DNA of 64,000 bases, from contig BCKZ01000001.1 of assembly GCA_001600815.1 (NCBI GenBank), positions 1,397,389 through 1,461,388 of the forward strand. Direction: 5' to 3'. The notes beneath the pieces are model-generated. The model was not told the DNA's origin. It saw only the letters and a list, made by a program, of their open reading frames with translations, and did no database searches. The DNA comes from Alloascoidea hylecoeti (lineage: Eukaryota). Within the stretch, counting starts at the first letter, position 1, and each line of letters begins with the position of its first letter. A program made the translations under genes and the position numbers. Shown here piece after piece: positions 40,236 to 57,526 of the stretch.

Positions 40236-43200
40236 ATGCAGGTTGTGTTTTCTCATCCCCTTAAAAATTTAGAAAATCCTATGACTATATTAGAAGAAGA
40301 AGGATATACTTTTTTGCGTAGGTCCAAGGAGGGCGAGAGTCAATTGAGCGACTTAGAAAATAATATCACTCATAATAGTGATTTGGAGGACCACAGTGAT
40401 GAAAATAAACTAGAAGACAAGGATGATAAAGATGAGAATGAAGAAGAAGATGAGAAAGAGGATGAGGATGAGGATGAGGATGAGGATGAGGATGATGGAT
40501 TTGAAGAGCTTGCTAGAGTGTGTATTTATTATCAATACCTTGTCAATTGATGCTTGCAATTGTTGATTTTTACTAACAAATCCTAAACAACGTAAAGCAA
40601 CGCAAAAGAAGACGCACAGTAAATAAATTCCTGGATTATGAAGCAGAAGTTGATAAAGATGATGAAGAATTTGATGATGAAGATGAACTCTTAGAAGGAA
40701 GCGATTTCATCTCTGAAACTGGTCAAGTGGAAATTTCAAGCCAAGATGATAGACTTCATAGAGAAGTTGATCGTAAAAGGGAACAACTTGCAGGACGAGA
40801 CGCAGAAATAATAGCTGCAGAATTGAAAGAAAGACATGGCAGAACATCAAGTTCAAAATATCGTGGAGATTCAAATGTTATTTCTCAAAGATTATTATTA
40901 CCTTCTGTTAATGAGCCAAATATATGGTATGTTAGATGTAAGCCAGGAAAAGCAAAAGAATTAGTTCGCGCTGTTTTAAGGAAAAAATTAAGTTTACAAA
41001 ATTCTGCAAAGCCACTAGAAATATTTTCTTGTTTTGAAAGATTTGGTTTTAATAATTATTTATATATTGAAGCAAGAAAACATGAAACTGTTGAGTATGC
41101 AATAAATGGTTTAGTTAATATTTATAAATCTAAAAAATCCATGGTGCCTGTTAAAGAATATATTGATCTATTAAGTACAGTTAAAATAAATGAAGTGATT
41201 CTAACTCCTGATCGTACATTAGTTCGAATTAAACGTGGTAAATATATTGGAGATTTAGCAATTGTTAAAAATTTATCTGAAAATGGTTTAGAAGTGGAAT
41301 TAAAATTAGTACCAAGATTAGATTATGGAAAATTTAATCATAATGACGGATCAGGAGGAGAAAGTGCTAATAAAAGAAGTAATAATTCATCAAAAAATCG
41401 ACCACAACAAAGATTATTTTCTGAACAAGAAGCATCACAATATGACTATAAACATTTACAAAGAAGAGGGAATGGTTCTTTTTTTTATAGAAATGAATAT
41501 TATGATCATGGTTATCTTCTTAAAGATTTTAAAATCACACTTATTGAAGCTAAAAATATTGTACCAAAATTAGAGGAATTAACACTTTTAGATATAAATT
41601 CAGAAGATGGGGTTGATTATCATCTAATTAAAGAATTTGCAAAACAATCTGCTACTTGTGGTACTAATTTCCAGCCCGGTGACAGAATTGCTATAATTGA
41701 TGGTGAACAATCAGGTTTAGAAGGTGTTGTTCATTCATCACAACAAGATATTGTTTCTTTATTAGTCGAATCATTCAATCATAAAGAGTTACAAGGTCAA
41801 AAAATTGATGTACCATCAGGAAATTTAAGAAAAATATTTAGAATCGGTGATCATGTTAAAGTAATTCATGGGAAACATTTAGATGATACTGGACTTGTTT
41901 TAGAAACTAAAAATGATCTAGTTACATTACTTAGTGATCTTTCGAATAATCAAATTACAATTTTTTCTAATTTTTTAATTAGTACTTCTGATTCTGGTGG
42001 TATTAATTCTGTTGGTAGATATGAATTATACGATTTAGTTGAAATAACACCTCAATTAGTTGGTGTAATTGTTAAAGCTGAAAGAGAGAGGCTTTCTGTT
42101 TTATGTCAAGATAAACAAATTCGTCATGCCGAACCGGCTTCCATTCCTTTTAAAATTAATAAAGAGTCATTCTGTACTGATCATGGTGGTTTAGATATCC
42201 GAATTGGTGATACAGTTAAAGAAATAATAGGTGAAAGAAGACAAGGTATTATTTTACATATTTATCGTTCAACTTTATTTTTACATTCAAGCAAGATACA
42301 TGAAAATCTTGGTGTATTTGTTGTAGATTCATCAAATGTTGGTACGATTGCTGCAAAACATGCTCGTGTTTCAAGAGTTGGTGTTGATTTAGATAAAATG
42401 AATCCGAAAATGCAAATTGGAAACATGGAAGCTCCAATGAATATTCCTAAACAAGGTGGTAGAGATCGAACAATTAATCAACGTGTTAGAGTTCGTTTAG
42501 GCCCATATAAAGGAATGATGGGTATAATTAAAGATGCAACAGATGATACAGCAAGAGTTGAACTTCATGCTAAAAATAAAATTATAAGTATTAATAAAGA
42601 TAAATTAACATTTTTTGATATTTCTAGTGTGCCTATTAGCTATCAAGAATTTGTAACTCCAAGAAAAATGTTAGGTAGTGCTTCTTTACCACAATATAAA
42701 GGCCCTTTAACACCAACATGGAGTATTACTGGAGGTAGAACCCCTGCCTGGGCATCTACTAATGCTAGAACTCCTGTTTGGGGTACTGGAGGAAAAACAC
42801 CATCTTGGGGTAGTACCACTGGATCACGTACACCAGCCTTTGGTAGTCTAACTCCCAGTTATGGTTTCGGAGGAAATAGAACACCAATGTTTGGCCAAGG
42901 AGGTAGTAGAACGCCAAAATATGGAGGAAACAAAACACCTTCTTGGGAATCTAATGGTGGTAGAACACCAGGGGGGAGGACACCTTCTTGGGCTATATCT
43001 GGATGGGGCGAGGGTGGTTACAAAACACCATCTGGACATCGTTCAGCATGGGATCCAAACACCACTGGTATCTCATCTGGAACTGGGCACCGATCTGCAT
43101 GGGATCCAAACTCTACTTCATCTGGTGGTGCCTGGGGTGAAGAACCACCAACACCTGCAATTTCAAGCATTGGGGGATCGTGGTCTGATCACAATTCAAC

Positions 43201-43417
43201 ACGAGGCATACCAACAACAGTAGAAACCCCTGGAATGTATAATGCTGAAACTGATCCAGTTCGTTGGAGTGAACAGGAGAATGAAAATGAAAATGAAAAT
43301 GAAAATGAAAATGAAAATGAAAATGAAAATGAAAATGAAGGCATAAGTGAAGATGAGGAGGAATATAATAATGCTGATACTGAAGCTCATTATTTACCAG
43401 AAGATTATTCTGAATAA
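40236..43417 (+). CDS. SPT5: Transcription elongation factor Spt5, 2 exons (intron 40518-40597)
   Basis: Acidic N-terminus, NKFLDYEAEV, NGN domain (LLLPSVNEPNIW..CKPGK), KOW motifs and GGRTPxW C-terminal repeats. Start could be 40281. Confidence 0.93.
43277..43339 (+). repeat. (GAAAAT)n hexamer encoding (EN)10 in the SPT5 tail
   Basis: gagaat followed by nine gaaaat units. Confidence 0.9.
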
Positions 43418-43779
43418 TATTTATTGTAATATTATTGTACTTTTAAGGAAACTATATTATATGAAAAGTTAAGTCTTAGCTTGAACAAATTGCTATATAT
43501 TTAATATGTTGTTGATTGCATTTGATTTTTGTTATTTATGTAGAGTATACAATATATATGAATAATGAATAATGAATAATTAATGATGTTTAATTGTAAG
43601 TTAATACTAATTATGTATATTTAAAATAACAAAAAGAATTAATTAGTGCTATGATACCATTCTTTTTGCCATTTTATGGTATTCATTTCACGGCGTTATA
43701 TTAGTGTATTCACTGCACCAAAAATGTAGTGTACCATCGTTACTACAAATGTTAATATTAACATGTATTATCTAATTGG

Positions 43780-44710
43780 TTAAGAATTATCTTCAATAAT
43801 AATAATCCAATAGACGCATTTCGGCACTATAAAGTGACATATACCAATCCTGAAGAAATCAGATTGCAGATTAGCAGTAATGCATACCAACTTTTAGGTA
43901 CAAGGAGAGTTTCTATAACCCCCAATTCTTTTCGCGCATTAATGCTAATCTAAATCTCAGACTGGTGCGATTGGATATGAGAAATATTCAGACGACCTTA
44001 TTCTTATATGTTAGGCAGGGTAATTGAACGCGTTTCCAGTGAATTCACAAGAGAAGAGAAACCCCGATTAATGAATGTATTGACATCGTCATTGATACAT
44101 TTGGCTTCGTGAGCATGATGTTGTATGTATCGTCCTTCGCAATTATGTTAATCACATTTAAAATATCAGTACCTTCGTTCCCTAGAGAACATACTTTAAA
44201 TTGCCTCCTCGTCATTTTAGACTCCGACTGAAGTTTATACTGTTCAATCCACCACAGTTTGCTTCTTGAACATTTATAAACACCCGGTGAAACAACCAGA
44301 GCTATCTGTATATGCTCTGTCAATTCTAGCAGGTGAATTCGGCTCTATCGCTGAACATACATTTGCAATTGACTTAGAATTCTTCTCACTAAACATGCAA
44401 TATTGGTCTATTAGTTTTACGGCTGTTGAACTCGAAGTTTCTAACTAGACTTTTTTTGTGTTCATGTTGGATACTGTATCAATAGGTGCTACATTCATTT
44501 TATATTCTTTCTCTACCTCAATTTTCGGAGCCTCTATTTCGGAGGCAAAGATAAGATCCAACATATTCCTCTATGATATGTAGGGATATCTGAATGCTAG
44601 ATGATTGTTTTCACGCCATTCATTCAACAAAGTCTTTGGTTGCTGTATAGTATTTAGTATTACTGTTCCACAGCTAGAGATGAATATTAAGATCATGTTT
44701 CGTTAGCCAA
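43780..44710. pseudogene. Degenerate coding relic of unknown origin
   Basis: Minus frame about 44700-44270 is open except for a few stops (...IFASEIEAPKIEVEKEYKMNVAPIDT...). A plus frame about 43800-44110 is also mostly open. GC is higher than the flanks. Confidence 0.35.
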
Positions 44711-45221
44711 TAATTCCAAAGCCTTGGTTAAAATAGTGTTTTTTGTAGATTGCTTTGGCAACTTTAATCATAACACACACTTTCCAAATCGGTTCTACAG
44801 ACTACAAGTTTTTCTACTTGGGTATCATGTTCAGTGTCATTAAAATAAAATAGATTCTTATTTTTGGTAATTAATAATCTCCTTAAAGGAAATGATGATC
44901 GAATAAAATTTCTTATTATTAGATATGAGTAGTGTGGGGAGAACAACTAATTTAGCATTATTCGCTTCATCAATATGTGTTTTTTTCAATGTTTGATATA
45001 GTGTGAAAATTTCTACTTGTGAGATGAATATTGTAATTCCTAATTATTTTGACTAAATATATTGTATGAAATAAATATTGGTAATTCCATTTTTAGTTAT
45101 TTATTTCGACTAATTATATGTATGACAAAGTATATAAAGACCCCCCTTTTCTCTCGTTTTTAACTTTATAATATCTACAAATTTAAATCAATTATATTAT
45201 CAATATTTAATAAAAAACAAG

Positions 45222-45899
45222 ATGATGCCTCATATGAAATGCCCACAACCAATTTATCTTGGTCAAGACAGCCCAAGAAATTCTAATGATAATGATGATA
45301 TCCCACAAACACAAGGGTTCAGAGAAAATAAAATGATGAGATACCCTCCAAGATATTTCAGTCAAGATTTCCCAAGATATACTAATAATAATGATGAAAT
45401 CCCACAATGGTTCAAAGAATATAAAATGAAAACAGATCGAGAAATTAATGATTTAAAACGTCAAGTAAACATTTTATCAAATAGACAAAGAGGTAATGGT
45501 CATGTTTATCCATATCTTTCAATAACTAATGATGATGGTAGAGAACCTCCACATAGTTTCCCAATTTTGTCATCAGTTGATTGTTTTAGAAATTTATCTG
45601 ATGACGAAGTTCTAAAATATTTAAGATTTTATAAGTTAAGGGAAGATAATGTTAAATCAAATAGGTATAATTTGGCAAGATTTTGTGGTTGTACTTCTGG
45701 GGAATATTTATTACAAAAAAAGTACGCTTATATGTCTGAGGAAGTAGCTAAGGATCCTATTAAAAAAGAAGAGACTGAAGAGGATGAAGCGATTGAAAAG
45801 GATGAAGAAGATTCTGAGAGTGAAGGCTGTATTATCGATAAGGATTCAGATGAGCTATTATATGAATCTTCAAAGAATTCAACAACATTTGTATGGTAA
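45222..45899 (+). CDS. Mug135/Tdk1-like C-terminal domain (DUF1773-type) protein
   Basis: Pattern IPQWF, short coiled coil, N...G...PY..I...DG.EP...FP.L.SV.....L......YL.FY.L........LARFCG matches my recollection of the Mug135_C family. Intronless, with TATA-like tatataaag at 45131. Confidence 0.65.
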   Translation: MMPHMKCPQPIYLGQDSPRNSNDNDDIPQTQGFRENKMMRYPPRYFSQDFPRYTNNNDEIPQWFKEYKMKTDREINDLKRQVNILSNRQRGNGHVYPYLSITNDDGREPPHSFPILSSVDCFRNLSDDEVLKYLRFYKLREDNVKSNRYNLARFCGCTSGEYLLQKKYAYMSEEVAKDPIKKEETEEDEAIEKDEEDSESEGCIIDKDSDELLYESSKNSTTFVW

Positions 45900-46088
45900 A
45901 TAAAACTTCAGTATTAAACCAATACTATTATATCTATGAAATTATATTAATACTATTATATCTATATCAATATCTATTTAATCTATGAAATTATATAAAA
46001 AATAAAAATAAGCAAAATAAGTATATTTTGTTTAACAACACTAAAAAAATCTTAGTAATACTGTACTCACATCCATAGTAATATTAAT

Positions 46089-46835
46089 ATGTCTGTCACG
46101 GTAAGTCCAATTATAAAAATCATTGTAAATACCCAAACTAACACAATCATTGTAGTTACATACAGACGTTGGAGATTTAAAAATTGAAATATTCTGTGAT
46201 GAATGTCCCAAAACTGCTGAAGTATGCTCTTTTTTTTGAATATAATTTTCATGATATAACATATTAATATCAAACATCGAAGAACTTCTTAGCACATTGT
46301 GCACAAGGAACATACGATAATACAAAAATTGTTAGGAATATTAAAGGATTTATGGTTCAAATGGGTGATCCTACAAATACAGGTAAAGGTGGAGAATCTA
46401 TTTGGGGTGAACCATTTGAAGATGAAATTAATCCAAATTTTAGACATGATTCAAGGGTATGTTTTTTTACAACCACAATAAAATAAAATTTTACAATTAT
46501 ATATTTATATTAATCATTATATTTTAGGGAGTTGTTTCAATGGCTAATTCTGGTCCAGATACAAACGGTAGTCAGTTTTTCATTGTAAGTTTTTCATAAA
46601 CAAATAATATACACGAATTGAAAACTAACCATACACGATAAAGACATATGATAAACAAGTAACATTAGATGGAAAATATACAATTTTTGGAAAAGTAATA
46701 TATGGAGCATCATCATCAGAAGAAAGTACTTTATCGAAACTTGAAGATTTACCGGTTGATCGTAAAAATCGACCAAAACCTTCAATTTATCTTAAAAATG
46801 TTACAATTCATGCCAATCCTCTTGCTGAACATTAA
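46089..46835 (+). CDS. CYP10: PPIL3/CYP10-type cyclophilin, 5 exons (46089-46100, 46156-46221, 46283-46456, 46528-46584, 46644-46835); absent from the ORF track
   Basis: Spliced product MSVTLHTDVGDLKIEIFC..PKTAENFLAHCA...RNIKGFMVQMGDPT.TGKGGESIWG...SMANSGPDTNGSQFFITY...VTIHANPLA; all four introns are phase 0. Confidence 0.93.
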
Positions 46836-46913
46836 TTAATAATATATAATTAAATTATAATGATAAAGTATATACATTTTCTTTTTTTTATAATATCAAA
46901 TATATAATGGGAT

Positions 46914-47301
46914 TTATTTCTTTTTAGCAGCTTTTGCTTCTTGTGTTTTTCTATGTTTTGCAGCTTCATCTAAATGAAGATATGCCCACATTGATTTTGC
47001 TTTATCTGGTGCTCCTCCTCTTTTTTTAGATTCTGTGAATAAAACATGTCGTTTTGCTTTTTAAAATGTAAACGTGTTAGCCATAACACATATAACAAGA
47101 AATATAAATGAGTTCATACCTATTGGATCATATCTAACTTGACTAACGGCAGGACAAGTTCTTGGCCTTGTAAGTGTTCGAATATAACCAGTCTTTGCTG
47201 ATGAAATTAATTTAATGATTGTTGTTCTTGCTTTTGCTTCTTTAAACAAAGTTAGAGTGTTATTTATTATATTTATTAGAATATTTCTTACTTCCTGCCA
47301 T
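46914..47301 (-). CDS. MRPL39: Mitochondrial ribosomal protein bL33m, 3 exons (47301-47292, 47239-47120, 47056-46914)
   Basis: Spliced product MAGKAKARTTIIKLISSAKTGY...VRYDPIAKRHVLFTESKK. Confidence 0.88.
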
Positions 47302-47432
47302 TTTGTTGATATTTTATTTGAAATTTGTTGTTTCGACTGAATCTTCAATTTTTCATTTTCTAATACAAACACCCATAACTCATAACTTACTTAACCTCCT
47401 AAATATAACATAAAGAGACAAAGTTGATTTTA

Positions 47433-48323
47433 ATGGCGATTAAAAGAAAGGCACCTTCAGAAGTGTCAAAGAGAAATGTCAGACCAATAACTTCTTTTTT
47501 CAAAAAAGCAGGAGTTGTTGGCCATGCTGGTCCAAAAGATTTAAATACAACTACAACTACAGATACAACTTTTAATAAACAAGAATGGATTAATAATTTA
47601 TCACCAGAGAATAAAACTTTATTAAAACTGGAAATTGAAACAATTGATGATTCTTGGTTTCAAGTACTTTCTAAAGAGTTTACAAAACCATATTTTTTGA
47701 ATTTAAAGAAATTTTTAAAAACTGAATTTAAGGGGAAAACCCCTATATTTCCACCATCAAATGATATTTATTCATGGACGCGTTTAACACCGTTTGATCA
47801 GGTTAAAATAGTTATATTAGGCCAAGATCCATACCACAATTTCAATCAAGCACATGGTTTAGCATTTTCAGTAAAACCACCAACTGTGGCACCACCATCG
47901 TTGAAAAATATGTATAAGGCTTTAAAAATTGACTATCCAAGTTTTGAAGTTCCCACAACGGGTGAATTAACTAAATGGGCCAAACAAGGTGTTTTATTGT
48001 TAAATACATGTTTAACCGTCCGAGCCCATCAAGCAAACTCGCATTCTGGGCACGGATGGGAAACGTTTACCGAGAAGGTTATATCGCTGGTTGCTGAAAA
48101 GAAAGAAGGAGTGGTGTTCATGGCTTGGGGGAATCCAGCTGGGAAGCGTGTGGATAAGATTTCCAGTGAGGTGAAAAAAAAACATTTGATCCTGAAGTCG
48201 GTTCATCCGAGTCCGTTAAGTGCCTCGAGGGGATATTTCACATGTGGGCATTATAAAAAGAGCAACGAGTGGTTGGAGGAGAAATTCGGGAAAAAAGCAG
48301 TTATCGATTGGACTTTAGCGTAG
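47433..48323 (+). CDS. UNG1: Uracil-DNA glycosylase
   Basis: Motifs GQDPYH, AHGLAFSV, GVLLLN and HPSPLS; PIP-like ITSFF near the N-terminus. Confidence 0.97.
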   Translation: MAIKRKAPSEVSKRNVRPITSFFKKAGVVGHAGPKDLNTTTTTDTTFNKQEWINNLSPENKTLLKLEIETIDDSWFQVLSKEFTKPYFLNLKKFLKTEFKGKTPIFPPSNDIYSWTRLTPFDQVKIVILGQDPYHNFNQAHGLAFSVKPPTVAPPSLKNMYKALKIDYPSFEVPTTGELTKWAKQGVLLLNTCLTVRAHQANSHSGHGWETFTEKVISLVAEKKEGVVFMAWGNPAGKRVDKISSEVKKKHLILKSVHPSPLSASRGYFTCGHYKKSNEWLEEKFGKKAVIDWTLA

Positions 48324-53253: not shown

Positions 53254-54299
53254 TAATAGATAGTGATTGTATATGTTTAATTTAAGTAGTTTATAGTGTA
53301 ACACAACTACAATTGTACGCTTTTTAAACAGAAAAAAATTTAAAAAGAGAAATAAATACAGATCTACAGAGGGAAAATCAGGCCCTTTATATATATATAG
53401 GTGACTAATTATAAACAGGTTAAGAAACAAGGAACATATAAGAAATAACGATATAACTTCGATGGCCTTGATCGCTTAAGCACAATATTATAATTAGCGA
53501 TTAGTTATCAGCGGTTAAGGGTCCTGACCAAGAGTATATTTAACCAGAGAGATCTAATTATTCTCACGAAAACGATCAAAACACATTGAACACAATAACT
53601 GTTGTATGCAACATTTTTTATATATTATCATCGCAACAGATAATAAATTTCCACAAGATATTCTAAAAGATTGATAATTTTGGGTGTATTTTATTTGAAT
53701 TTGTAGGTAAATACTATAAACTTTGATTAATTAGAATATACCCGTATGATTGATCTTTTGTGTCATGATTATTAGCGCGATTGTAAGATAGAAAGAGCGG
53801 TTAATAACTTTTTCGGCCAATTGACATGTTAACATCTTGTGATCAAACTCACTATAAGTTATTTATATGGTAAAAACATGCATATTTATGATTTAATTAT
53901 CCAAACCACGTGCACCCTAGTGACCTACTATTTCCCCAAGCTCCAATCCATCATGGCAAACAAACCCAAACCTTCGCAACAGCCTCGGGTGTCAATGAGC
54001 ACGCGAAATGTCTCTATTGTCCGGCTTGACGGCTGTACGTAATACGTACACACCACCATTGCTCGTGATTATCTGTTTAAGATGATCAACCAGGAGAAGA
54101 AACCAGTACGGAGATATCTCTTAATGGAAAAATTACATATGAAATAATTGAAGTGGAAGAAGACATAAGCTTAAGTAATGCTGAATCAACTTCAAAGAGT
54201 CCTTCGAATTCAATATACTTGGTAGAAGCTAGCCGTTTAAAAGAATAATCAAAAAACGATTATGATTAATGATATACCGCCGGTAACTATACACACAGT

Positions 54300-55260
54300 A
54301 GAAGTTGCAAGATCCGTCCAAGATTATGTAATACATTACACAAAAGAATTCGATAGGATTTCTTTGAAGTAAAGAGATTCTTTACAAAACACTCAAAATC
54401 AATTACACAATTATTAAAGCCGAGAACCAAAATGTTTTACCATAAGCAAATGAAGGTCTATTCACATCTTGTTCTTCTTCATATGCACATTCAAGATCTA
54501 CTTCATCCAAACTATCCTTATGAATGTAAAGGGGTTAATGTATAAGGATAATTTGGATGAAATGGATCTTACATTATTATGTTTTATAAAAAAAAGCTAT
54601 TGATTTTTTCGATCGTTAGAAAAAAAGTTGAAAAAGAGATGCAACATATTGCTAACGTATTATTAGCTAAAAATCTTGGTGAATTCATTAAAGATGAAAC
54701 AAAATCTAGACAAAATTTAAAAGATTTATTTTTGAAATNTGTATATTTTGGAAAAAAAGAAGGACATTTTACTTGCAAAATGGATTTAAAAATAAATATT
54801 AATTTAATCCCATTAGAAGATCAAATTCAATATTCTCAGAATATCAATTTCATTCCCAAGTACTGGTTTTCAGTGGTATAACATTTATCGAAGCTACCGG
54901 TAGAATCTGTTGCTTTAATCTTATGGAAAACAAAAATTATATTCTGAAGATAGTTGATCCAGTTACCTGCTGCTAACGTTGATAGAGGCTTGAATGAGAT
55001 GACTAAACATTGTTATAAGTGTTATGAGAACGAATTGGATAGTTACTTGTTAGTAGCAGGTGACGAAAGATTTAAAAAGATTGTCCCTACTCTTTATGGA
55101 ATAGGGTTTTGTACTGTCTGTGACAATGATGTTATTTGTAGTGCCGGTTTCTTCTAGTAGAATTCATAGAAGGGGCATTTTGCAGCCAGATTAAACATTG
55201 GGTCAGGAGGAGCAGTTTCGATTTCTGTGAAGAAGGACATTATGAATTATGAATTGTAGA
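54300..55260 (+). pseudogene. Fragmented ORF, possibly an atypical kinase-like gene
   Basis: Several same-strand ORF pieces broken by stops and frameshifts. CYENELDSY....KKIVPTLYGIG resembles the 'NE..Y..L....VP.LYG' segment of fungal kinase-like proteins. One N at 54739. Confidence 0.35.
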
Positions 55261-55312
55261 TGAAGATTGAAGATTGATAAAGATAGAGAAAAACCTGGGG
55301 TATTGATACCGA

Positions 55313-55528
55313 ATGTCCCACCCCACAGGGCAAATTGCTAACATATTCTCTGCAGATTCCGTTGCCGATCAAATAGCTGAGAGAAAAGAAGTTCCAAATG
55401 ATATCGTCTCCACCTTCTTCTCCTATCTCATTTCTCCCTATGCCTTGGTCTGTGTATCCATGGCTGTTATACTAAACAGGACCGTGGTATTTGCAAACTC
55501 CAGAATCCACAGGTCAACTTATGCTTAA
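55313..55528 (+). pseudogene. Truncated N-terminal fragment of an ASI1/ASI3-like membrane ubiquitin ligase
   Basis: FFSYLISPYALVCVSMAVILNRTVVFANSR matches the recalled first conserved TM block of fungal Asi-like proteins. The ORF stops after 71 aa with no obvious splice rescue. Confidence 0.5.
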
Positions 55529-57526
55529 GCTTGGTATGCATGCTGAAAATATGACTTCATTCATCTTATAATTATAAAAAGTTAAACCGGTAATTAAGTT
55601 CGTGTTACAAAATGTCTACAATTGGAAAAATTGATATCACTTTGTTATGTTTGATCTGAGAAGAATTAAAAGGCCAGGTTTAGAGATTCTTATTTTAAGC
55701 GATCGCGATAGCTCAAACGGCTATTTTAATTTCTGAAATTTTTCCAAATAGGTCTCAGCACTCACACCATTTTAGGACGGTTATTCAATAACCGCCGTGA
55801 AACTGGACATTTTGTTTACAATCTTAAATATAACTGGAAACTGTTGTGTTAATGTTAGGGATCAGGTCACATGACATCGTATGATCCTGATCAGGTGTTC
55901 CTCCTTTCCTGTAGTTTATTATTTTTGTAATATATTTTATTGGTATATTATATTTCAACTGTGACCGGTTATTATAAACCACCTTTATCATGTTTATTGC
56001 AATACAGACAAAACTAAACCTCCATGTTCCTAAACAGTTTTAGGTTCTCGTATTCCAGAAATTACACAGCTCTACTCCTACTGGATATAAATAATCTTAC
56101 TCATACAAAACTTTTGTAATTAATCTTCGTGTAACTTCAGTTCATATAGTTTTTCATCAAAATTGCTAACGGTGTCAATATCGATATAGGAGCTGAAATT
56201 TCAAATAATAGACAGGATCAAGGTTCTTACCCTAAGTTGAAATGTGTAATTGACCTCATAATGATACAACGGCCTATAATGGTAATTCAGATTCAACTAC
56301 TGTACCCGTATTTGGCCAACTCATATTTTAAATATTAGGCTATGCTGATTGCCAAATCTCTGCCAGACTGAATTTTTTTCAGCTTATAATGTTTTTTATC
56401 CAGATAACTATTGCCGGTATGGTCCATTAAAATGAGGGGATATGGAACAACAAATGCGGCCGCTAGTTATTAATCAACAGTGCCGAATATTTAATGATTA
56501 TTTGGTCTAAATTAAGTATAATTGGTGCATATTTAATATGAAACATAAATACTTTGAAGTTATATTAAATTGATGAAAAGAAGTGTTATATTTGTGATAC
56601 ATATTGGCAAATAGAAACTGGCTCCCATATAATTTCCCCATCAGCTGGAGTGGCCACAATGAAACCAAGTTGTGCCACTTTACCAATATTATATTCGGTA
56701 TTGTTGGAAGATATGACACTCGACGTTAAATCATATTTTTGGTGCAACTGGTTCGATACGTGTCTGATAGATATCGATCTTGTTATGATTGATCCAGTAT
56801 TTGGCAAAGAAATTAAAGGCAATGATGTTGAAGGTGTTTTAGGTATAAATATAGCTTATATTGTTACAAATTTTTTTAATAAATATTAATTATGAAGAAA
56901 GCATTCTTAACAGCCAGTGAAATTTCAATTTATAATAAAAATCAACGTGTATGATAGCTCAAAAATATGCTAATTACAATATCGATATCCTTTGAAAGAC
57001 CAATTGAGGAATCAGAGTAACTTTTAGGATATATGAATATCTTTCTTCGTTTGCTCTTTTACATAATCTTTAGATATTTTAATAATGGTTATTATCATCG
57101 ATATCATTTAGAGAATTCCAATCGGTCCTCCATTAAAAATAAAATCGTATAAGGCCTTATATTAATATTATACTCGATATCAAGTTTATTAGAAGCTTTT
57201 AGTATGCTTTACGAAAAATTTATATACATATACTACACAACAATGTGGTATCAAAAATTAAAAATTAAAACCTATAAATTAATATTATATATTTTATATC
57301 CAAACAATTACAAAATCACCGAGTTAGTAATACTAACAGTTTTGTGGGATGCTTAAGAACTATTGCTTTTTTTATTTTTTTATTTTTTGATTGCTCAATA
57401 TATTGAAGTTTATGTTGCTACATATAGCTGATACGACTTTTTATCAAGAATTTATAAAGTAAATTTTTTCACTCTGAATTTGGGATTTCTTTACTTTAAT
57501 AGCCTTTCTAATATATATAAACCAAC

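Follow-up and report, generated by a model that had tools for sequence, protein, structure and literature searches.

The window, a stretch of 64,000 nucleotides of Alloascoidea hylecoeti (contig BCKZ01000001.1, positions 1,397,389 to 1,461,388), carries on its forward strand a genuine gene, here termed P0001, whose product is a new truncated member of a protein family already catalogued in budding yeasts, the Tdk family. Among known drivers, only the Tdk genes combine poison and antidote in one protein, and an earlier note, made from the letters of the window alone, had inferred that the locus could be a selfish element of the toxin/antidote type. The evidence presented here leans toward a different reading, namely that P0001 encodes a short-form member of the family which does not drive, and of which a module composed of a helix and a head domain has been retained by selection. 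Most likely, P0001 is not an autonomous killer in the manner of Tdk1 from Schizosaccharomyces pombe, because it lacks the N-terminal module on which both autoinhibition and the formation of toxic assemblies depend in Tdk1. The protein consists of five parts: a disordered and duplicated N-terminus, a P-x-W-F linker, a helix of ∼30 residues, a Tdk1-like head, and an acidic tail (Table 1).

Gene, domain, and predicted structure

The coding region is a single open reading frame (ORF) without introns, as the earlier note had read it, and its in-frame codon-usage score (24–28 per 40 codons) is host-like: other coding stretches in the window score 26–30, compared with a peak of 9.5 in the intergenic region between FET3 and FTR1. 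An in-frame stop just 5′ of the ATG closes the reading frame and, taken together with the TATA box 85–91 nt upstream, means that no upstream exon is indicated. As the gene contains no CTG codon at all, its translation is independent of CUG reassignment. The repeat search found neither long terminal nor inverted repeats bounding the gene, which therefore lacks a transposon-like structure. A scan for sigma-70 promoters and terminators, irrelevant for a yeast, returned nothing.

The head domain matched the Pfam model Mug135_C with an E-value of 3.4e-13 and 50.1 bits (cutoff 23.8), covering positions 2–82 of the 82 positions in the model, and the product of a second gene copy, P0002 (see below), reached 43.8 bits against the same model. 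Membership of P0001 in the Mug135_C domain family is thus secure, and the compact Mug135_C/DUF1773 domain that the earlier note had recognized from its pattern is confirmed by the hidden Markov model. A further Pfam family, DUF3294 (PF07957), scored 20.1 bits for residues 78–180 of P0001, just under its cutoff of 20.6, and 19.8 bits for P0002; this near-threshold likeness is common to both proteins, but it lies below the cutoff and does not constitute membership. Atlas clusters near P0001 carry both families, which is a lead only, and no paper mentioning DUF3294 was found in the literature library searched.

The same note had called for a structural comparison with Tdk1. Residues 55–171 were modeled with AlphaFold2 (AF2) from an alignment of five sequences, resulting in a predicted local distance difference test score (pLDDT) of 64.1 and a predicted template modeling score of 0.47. 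When this model was compared with 48,161 representatives of the Protein Data Bank (PDB), only two chains reached a Z-score of at least 5, both of them from cryo-EM structures of Tdk1: 9ja6_A (Z 8.5, root-mean-square deviation 5.6, 112 of 117 residues aligned to residues 233–351 of the Tdk1 chain) and 9ja5_A (Z 8.1). The chain ranked next scored 4.4. Foldseek, run over 350,542 chains, also ranked 9ja6_A (E 0.099) and 9ja5_A (E 0.14) first, each with a probability of 0.97. Identity between P0001 and Tdk1 in the structural alignments amounted to 15–22%, and phmmer of P0001 against the PDB sequences gave no match at E-values up to 10. The likeness was accepted because Tdk1, the best-scoring match, founded the Pfam family to which P0001 itself belongs, because the alignment covers nearly the whole model, and because it stands well clear of all other chains. 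A Tdk1-like fold of residues 55–171 is, as judged from this model, supported by moderate evidence.

The rows below Tdk1 in the PDB-wide list were mostly helix–extended–helix motifs of the SAP and LEM type (Z 2.6–4.4). These motifs, among them those of hnRNP-U-like E1B-AP5, SLX4, Ku70, DEK, PIAS, emerin, and LAP2 (example entries: 1zrj, 7bu5, 1jjr, 2do1, 1h1j, and 2odc), aligned to model residues ∼37–108, that is, to residues 91–162 of P0001 (45492–45707). With Z-scores this low over 40–55 residues, which is in the range of common arrangements, they represent a lead and not membership. They may hint that the Mug135_C head binds DNA or chromatin, and the helix–head module may act in the nucleus or on chromatin. 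Hua et al (2024) do not use the term “SAP domain” in their main text.

Both AF2 models place a helix immediately before the head, which is the arrangement described for Tdk proteins, and this helix aligns to alpha1 at the end of the Tdk1 stalk. It is preceded by the motif P-Q-W-F. The proline at position 61 is invariant across the four aligned sequences, the same place being occupied by APPWF in the relative P0004 and by IPKWF in P0002. The linker of P0001 contains a single proline at what may be the place of the PP motif of Tdk proteins. For complex prediction, three copies of residues 52–170 were submitted to ESMFold2. The median interaction prediction score from aligned errors (ipSAE) was 0.76, compared with 0.01 for the best control, the partner pLDDT was 83, and at least 76% of the contacts agreed between runs. 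Among the calibration proteins, which were run as two copies, 21 of the 30 solved as pairs of one chain attained the mark of 0.76, but none of the 23 solved as single chains did. The interface comprised residues 60–89 and paired the same or neighboring residues (78–78, 82–82, 64–64, 71–71, and 85–85) at heptad-like spacing, which indicates a parallel, in-register coiled coil; no confident contacts between the heads were present in the three-copy prediction. These predictions support, but do not show, a Tdk1-like coiled-coil stalk in P0001, and they agree with the PQWF motif and short coiled-coil stalk that had been proposed from the sequence. Most likely, the core of P0001 (residues ∼55–170, helix and head) would assemble as in Tdk1, that is, as a parallel coiled-coil oligomer with the heads at one end.

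The N-terminus is indeed duplicated, as had been claimed. A direct repeat of 60 nt with 80% identity recurs at a spacing of 99 nt, which is in frame and corresponds to 33 codons. Its local alignment score of 66 was reached by none of 2,000 codon shuffles (18.9 ± 3.0). Tandem Repeats Finder did not report this 99-nt duplication, which was picked up by the repeat search and the shuffle test. An AF2 model of full-length P0001, based on four aligned sequences and with an overall pLDDT of 40.6 (it was for this reason kept out of the fold search), contained nothing helical or strand-like before residue 62, with pLDDT values below 50 in that region. No counterpart of the N-terminal domain of Tdk1 (residues 1–111) or of its long stalk was found in P0001. 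The Z-shaped N-terminal domain that is part of the Tdk architecture (Zhang et al, 2025) is likewise missing in the model, which is of low confidence here. The linker is preceded by only 60 residues.

Table 1. Position of P0001, its parts, and associated features in the window.
Feature	Position	Strand	Remarks
P0001 ORF	45222..45899	+	225 aa, intronless, ATG start, stop codon included
N-terminal residues 1–60	45222..45401	+	low-complexity; AF2: no secondary structure
Duplication copy 1	45249..45308	+	repeat search; holds decayed linker motif copy IPQTQGF
Duplication copy 2	45348..45407	+	repeat search; ends in IPQ of the IPQWF linker motif
P-Q-W-F linker motif, residues 61–64	45402..45413	+	directly 5′ of the helix; possibly the position of the PP motif in Tdk proteins
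Predicted stalk helix, residues 62–90	45405..45491	+	AF2: 62–88 (full-length model), 62–90 (55–171 model)
Mug135_C head (PF08593/IPR013902), residues 86–158	45477..45695	+	hmmscan
Acidic tail, residues 171–225	45732..45896	+	55 residues, 21 D/E, 6 K/R, net charge −15
Stretch shared with second genomic copy (P0002 locus)	45379..45698	+	55 mismatches, ∼83% identical, two in-frame indels
Exact metatranscriptome match	45242..45433	+	192 nt within a 197-nt contig of X5, no differences
TATA box (TATATAA)	45131..45137	+	pattern scan; 5′ of the first ATG
Upstream flank match to paralogue contig	44861..44904	+	colinear, 44 nt, 6 mismatches; short, AT-rich, chance possible
Downstream flank match to paralogue contig	46022..46061	+	colinear, 40 nt, 6 mismatches; short, AT-rich, chance possible
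SPT5	41141-43417		upstream of P0001; multiple SPT5 KOW/CTD Pfam matches
Cyclophilin gene	46089-46835	+	Pro_isomerase matches on exons 46268-46483 and 46629-46832

Second copy, selection, and probable transcription

A phmmer search (E ≤ 0.001) of 1.84 billion representative proteins, a library that includes predictions from the same organism and contains both P0001 and P0002, returned four proteins including P0001 itself. None of these matches is longer than 225 aa, and a full-length family relative was not among them. P0002 (164 aa) is 71% identical over residues 54–168 of P0001; it starts at the equivalent of residue 52–54, ∼10 residues before the P-x-W-F motif. The remaining two, P0004 and P0005, are metagenome proteins (E 9e-5 and 9e-4, respectively). 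Word-index searches (2 of 56, 6 of 1606, and 5 of 1108 candidates) contributed only P0006 and P0007 as new relatives, and none of the 293 and 137 pattern matches from metagenome scans for an encoding locus was confirmed.

Contigs of four sequencing runs were placed on positions 43300–47500 (4201 nt): a wood-decay metagenome (X1), a run labeled as an isolate (X4), a metatranscriptome (X5), and a run from organism B (X9). X1 and X4 show no difference from the window, which may have been derived from them; they provide no information on polymorphism. Each of these two runs contains two kinds of contig, one identical to the window and one representing a second copy (6231 nt long in X1 and 2694 nt in X4). 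In the second copy, 12 nt have been inserted behind 45454 and 3 nt are missing at 45548 relative to the window. These indels agree with the differences between P0002 and P0001, namely the KRKK insertion and a gap of one residue. The depth of the two contigs was 10.3 versus 9.92 in X1 and 10.5 versus 7.88 in X4. As both copies are found at similar depth in each of these DNA samples, and as the indels match, P0002 is a paralogue at another locus and not the ortholog of another species. The same DNA samples thus contain at least two copies of the gene, one of them with a frame-changed tail. Colinear matches on either side of the gene (Table 1) hint that promoter and 3′ flank may have been duplicated along with it. 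X9 covers only low-complexity pieces and is uninformative as to the presence of the gene in other species. A joint in X1 that skips 43527–46833 was considered as a deletion allele and rejected, one of its sides being just 21 letters at 80% likeness, which points to an artifact from a repeat or a foreign organism.

The two copies differ at both ends. The acidic tail described earlier for P0001 is present, with D/E outnumbering K/R by 21 to 6. The tail of P0002 (residues 131–164) matches 45811–45900 in another reading frame (tblastn E 0.002), and the paralogue contig comprises 211 nt in place of the 323 nt of the window; the two copies thus have no acidic tail in common. P0002 instead ends in a basic tail, which is the DNA of the window's acidic tail in another frame. 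From the alignment of the two sequences, P0001 and P0002 appear to have only helix and head in common.

Within this common part, 40 substitutions in 80 codons were evaluated (synonymous differences 15.5, nonsynonymous differences 24.5), resulting in a dS of 0.43, a dN of 0.14, and a dN/dS of 0.33 (40/44 substitutions counted). The excess of synonymous changes between the copies was significant (binomial p 0.003–0.007). The helix–head core thus seems to be under purifying selection in at least one lineage, both ends apparently being free to change.

P0001 is probably transcribed and expressed. Among the contigs of X5, a small rRNA-depleted run from a wood-decay study in which DNA carry-over is possible, a single one matches the 4201 nt without any difference, and it passes through the duplicated region of P0001 (Table 1). 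The match weakly suggests transcription of the gene in nature. The other piece from X5, which aligns to 45 nt of the cyclophilin gene with 7 mismatches, probably originates from another organism.

Comparison with Tdk proteins and alternative readings

What is known about Tdk proteins is taken here from two PNAS papers of 2024 (one of them Hua et al, 2024; see also PMC11551426) and of the preprint by Zhang et al (2025; PMC12930445). Tdk1 (357 aa) is composed of an N-terminal domain (residues 1–111), a helical stalk (112–275) with a dispensable repeat region, and, at the C-terminus, a globular domain (276–357). Its C-terminal part, Tdk1C (227–357), binds Bdf1 as a dimer of trimers, and the full-length protein rests as an autoinhibited tetramer. 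Tdk1C alone is non-toxic; toxicity needs a second oligomerization module of other stoichiometry, which is provided by the N-terminal region, and this region is required for autoinhibition as well as for the toxic assemblies and foci. Mutations in the trimer–trimer interface abolish killing and leave resistance intact (PMC11551426). For the family as a whole, Zhang et al (2025) describe the IPR013902 domain as preceded by a Z-shaped N-terminal domain, a PP motif, and a helix, in this order. In their survey, 478 IPR013902 proteins were found in 150 of 1,430 fungal proteomes, including those of 32 of 130 Saccharomycotina species but of none in the Saccharomycetaceae. The 62 Saccharomycotina proteins belong to Debaryomycetaceae (29), Pichiaceae (26), Lipomycetaceae (5), and Ascoideales (2; Supplementary Data 2 of PMC12930445).

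P0001 has PF08593, the C-terminal fold as modeled, and the predicted helix directly before the domain in common with Tdk1 (mug135, SPCC330.04c; 9ja5 and 9ja6). The stalk of Tdk1 is a parallel coiled coil, whereas the helix of P0001 is only predicted to form one. With 225 aa as opposed to 357 aa, P0001 has no counterpart of the N-terminal domain and of most of the stalk (112–232, including the repeat region), but it possesses an acidic tail, which Tdk1 does not. Like P0001, the IPR013902 proteins reported from budding yeasts, for example the nine of Debaryomyces hansenii, come from Saccharomycotina hosts, and several of them lack the N-terminal domain; their genomes carry multiple copies, at least two being seen here. 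The intact D. hansenii protein B5RTN5, in contrast to P0001, has the Z-shaped domain. The S. cryophilus genes tdk210 and tdk203, both active drivers, and the reconstructed tdk315 ancestor belong to the same family, which is marked by fast divergence, shifting host dependence, and loss of killing before loss of resistance. All three are bipartite, an N-terminal region being joined through PP motif and helix to the IPR013902 domain, and P0001 equals only the second half. As far as the models permit, P0001 appears to be a natural “Tdk1C-only” protein, the counterpart of Tdk1 residues 233–351, to which low-complexity ends including the acidic tail have been added.

Literature searches found no characterized driver of the Tdk family in Saccharomycotina, which agrees with what the earlier note had stated. 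Its claim to novelty holds only to that extent, however, as the presence of the family in budding yeasts and the driver hypothesis have both been published. Whether remote Tdk1 homologues act as drivers was asked by Hua et al (2024), and Zhang et al (2025) considered that many IPR013902 genes may be drivers, functional tests outside Schizosaccharomyces being difficult. Nor is the route through Bdf1, by which the note had explained the toxicity of Tdk1, a feature of the family, because tdk210 and tdk203 act independently of Bdf1 and Bdf2 (PMC12930445).

If P0001 is a non-driving short form with a selected helix–head module, the gene might have been domesticated or might be left over, as a resistance-type copy, from a former driver. 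Several points weigh against this reading. The missing N-terminal domain is an argument from Tdk1 only; other members might have different ways of killing, and in host dependence tdk210 and tdk203 already depart from Tdk1. Two copies with unstable ends and almost no detectable relatives are the pattern of selfish families. The dN/dS value rests on 40/44 substitutions and cannot tell which of the copies is constrained. With respect to the structure, the Foldseek E-values of the two Tdk1 chains are not significant on their own, and a profile of four sequences reached Tdk1 in the PDB at E-values of 0.028 and 0.04 only, an unrelated alcohol dehydrogenase having obtained 0.02. The 55–171 model is of middling confidence owing to its alignment of five sequences, and long helices alone can give a Z-score of 8.5 by their arrangement. 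Coiled coils are readily predicted to associate, the calibration of the ipSAE was based on two copies and not three, and the predictor may have seen the Tdk1 structures.

The alternative that survives best, although it is rather improbable, is that P0001 is the decaying remnant of a full-length Tdk-type driver, which lost its 5′ half, is non-functional, and is turning into a pseudogene. The absence of the N-terminal domain would fit such a fate: Zhang et al (2025) regarded budding-yeast copies without this domain as suggestive of pseudogenization, and 49 of the 93 tdk loci they list in Schizosaccharomyces are pseudogenes. P0002, too, has no N-terminus and reads its tail in another frame, and the N-terminus of P0001 is a recent duplication that holds a decayed copy of the linker motif. 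A gene in decay would, on the other hand, hardly be expected to have remained open over 225 codons with host-like codon usage, to differ from its paralogue by two indels that are both in frame, and to exhibit a dN/dS of 0.33 with a significant synonymous excess; the TATA box at the right distance and the exact match in an RNA library also speak against it.

Less probable than decay is a role as a suppressor of drive, that is, a resistance-only copy whose Tdk1C-like product joins the C-terminal module of a full-length driver in a common assembly and thereby blocks the toxic assemblies. Antidote-only wtf genes would be a parallel to such a role, as would the reconstructed tdk315 ancestor, which has lost killing and retained resistance, in keeping with the observation that tdk genes lose the toxin function first (PMC12930445) and that the interface mutants of Tdk1 no longer kill yet remain resistant (PMC11551426). 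The module by which Tdk proteins self-assemble is retained and constrained in P0001, its assembly being predicted. The full-length driver to be suppressed is, however, missing from the relatives detected, all four phmmer matches out of 1.84 billion representatives, P0001 included, being 225 aa or shorter.

A bolder proposal, which we consider a long shot, is that the helix–head module alone is the minimal working Tdk unit in budding yeasts, either as a killer in which the duplicated N-terminus or the acidic tail substitutes for the missing oligomerization module, or as a dedicated suppressor. If true, Saccharomycotina would thereby have its first functional component of tdk-type drive. Least probable of all, and very unlikely, is the killer meiotic driver that the earlier note had envisaged, here an active single-gene element of minimal architecture that would make a toxic form in the spores and an antidote form at germination. 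In its favor are family membership (three members being proven drivers; PMC12930445), the Tdk1-like fold of the model, the predicted self-associating stalk, a second diverged copy at another locus, possibly with its short flanks, the fast-changing ends, and the few relatives with their patchy distribution, but the N-terminal module for autoinhibition and toxic foci is absent, Tdk1C alone is harmless (PMC11551426), and a dN/dS of 0.33 is unlike the signature of an arms race. Moreover, in Schizosaccharomyces three tdk genes are active drivers and one is marginal, whereas six further genes tested did not drive (PMC12930445). The gene also lies inside a chromosome among housekeeping genes, and the sole RNA hint says nothing on meiosis, as it comes from a wood-decay community and not from sporulating cells. 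A pattern scan of the 520 nt upstream (44700–45221) found neither the Ndt80-type, MSE-like (middle sporulation element) motif CRCAAA nor the URS1 core GGCGGC, a weak argument for which use of these motifs by the host yeast is assumed.

The locus as it stands is a modest addition to a catalogued family and not a new kind of system; it adds a natural “Tdk1C-only” variant that is apparently kept by selection in two copies. An independent function of the helix–head module, if there is one, would point to an ancestral, non-selfish role of Mug135_C, or to the decay of drivers into harmless or protective genes.

Genomic neighborhood

P0001 is surrounded by chromosome-internal housekeeping genes (ATP1, mitochondrial EF-G, FET3/FTR1, SPT5, and UNG1, among others) and is not located at a chromosome end; the window has an overall GC content of 31%. 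Among PDB chains, ATP1 scored best against 5lqx of Ogataea angusta (862.9 bits), followed by 2hld of S. cerevisiae (845.9), 5fl7 of Yarrowia (832.6), and bovine chains (∼744). SPT5 scored best against 6ir9, from Komagataella, and 8jh2 (437 bits), compared with 310 bits for a chain of 1063 residues. These scores support a budding yeast outside the Saccharomycetaceae as host. The neighbors that the earlier note had named, SPT5 upstream and a cyclophilin gene downstream, were identified by their Pfam matches (Table 1). That note had also seen a degenerate coding relic next to P0001, for which no support was obtained. The ∼1 kb between SPT5 and P0001 (43750–44700) has a GC content of 34–38%, compared with 21–25% in the flanking spacer, and contains minus-strand stop-to-stop ORFs of at most 99 aa. 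Its codon score did not exceed 12.5, which is near the intergenic level. There was no Pfam match among six ORFs, no Rfam match, and no tblastn similarity to Mug135 proteins, and the runs compared contained no second copy of this stretch at 80% likeness. A minus-strand ORF at 46041–46313 was dismissed, as it is merely antisense to cyclophilin exons. At least one N, either an assembly gap or a masked base, lies within 53300–57500.

The 758-aa ORF of SPT5 aligns only from about residue 300 of solved SPT5 chains, and an acidic ORF at 40236–40550 resembles the missing N-terminus. The SPT5 gene (40236–43417, forward strand) thus seems to be interrupted by one or more introns, or by a frameshift in the assembly, between 40550 and 41141. 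The C-terminal end of SPT5 is a perfect repeat, (Glu-Asn)n (ENENENEN...), for which a GAAAAT microsatellite at 43300–43390 codes; repeats at 43300–43347 were left out when the contigs were placed. The cyclophilin gene appears to start with the ATG at 46089, and its exon borders, placed by eye, suggest a first exon of four codons (MSVT) and at least four short introns of ∼50–70 nt, a number unusually high for a budding-yeast gene.

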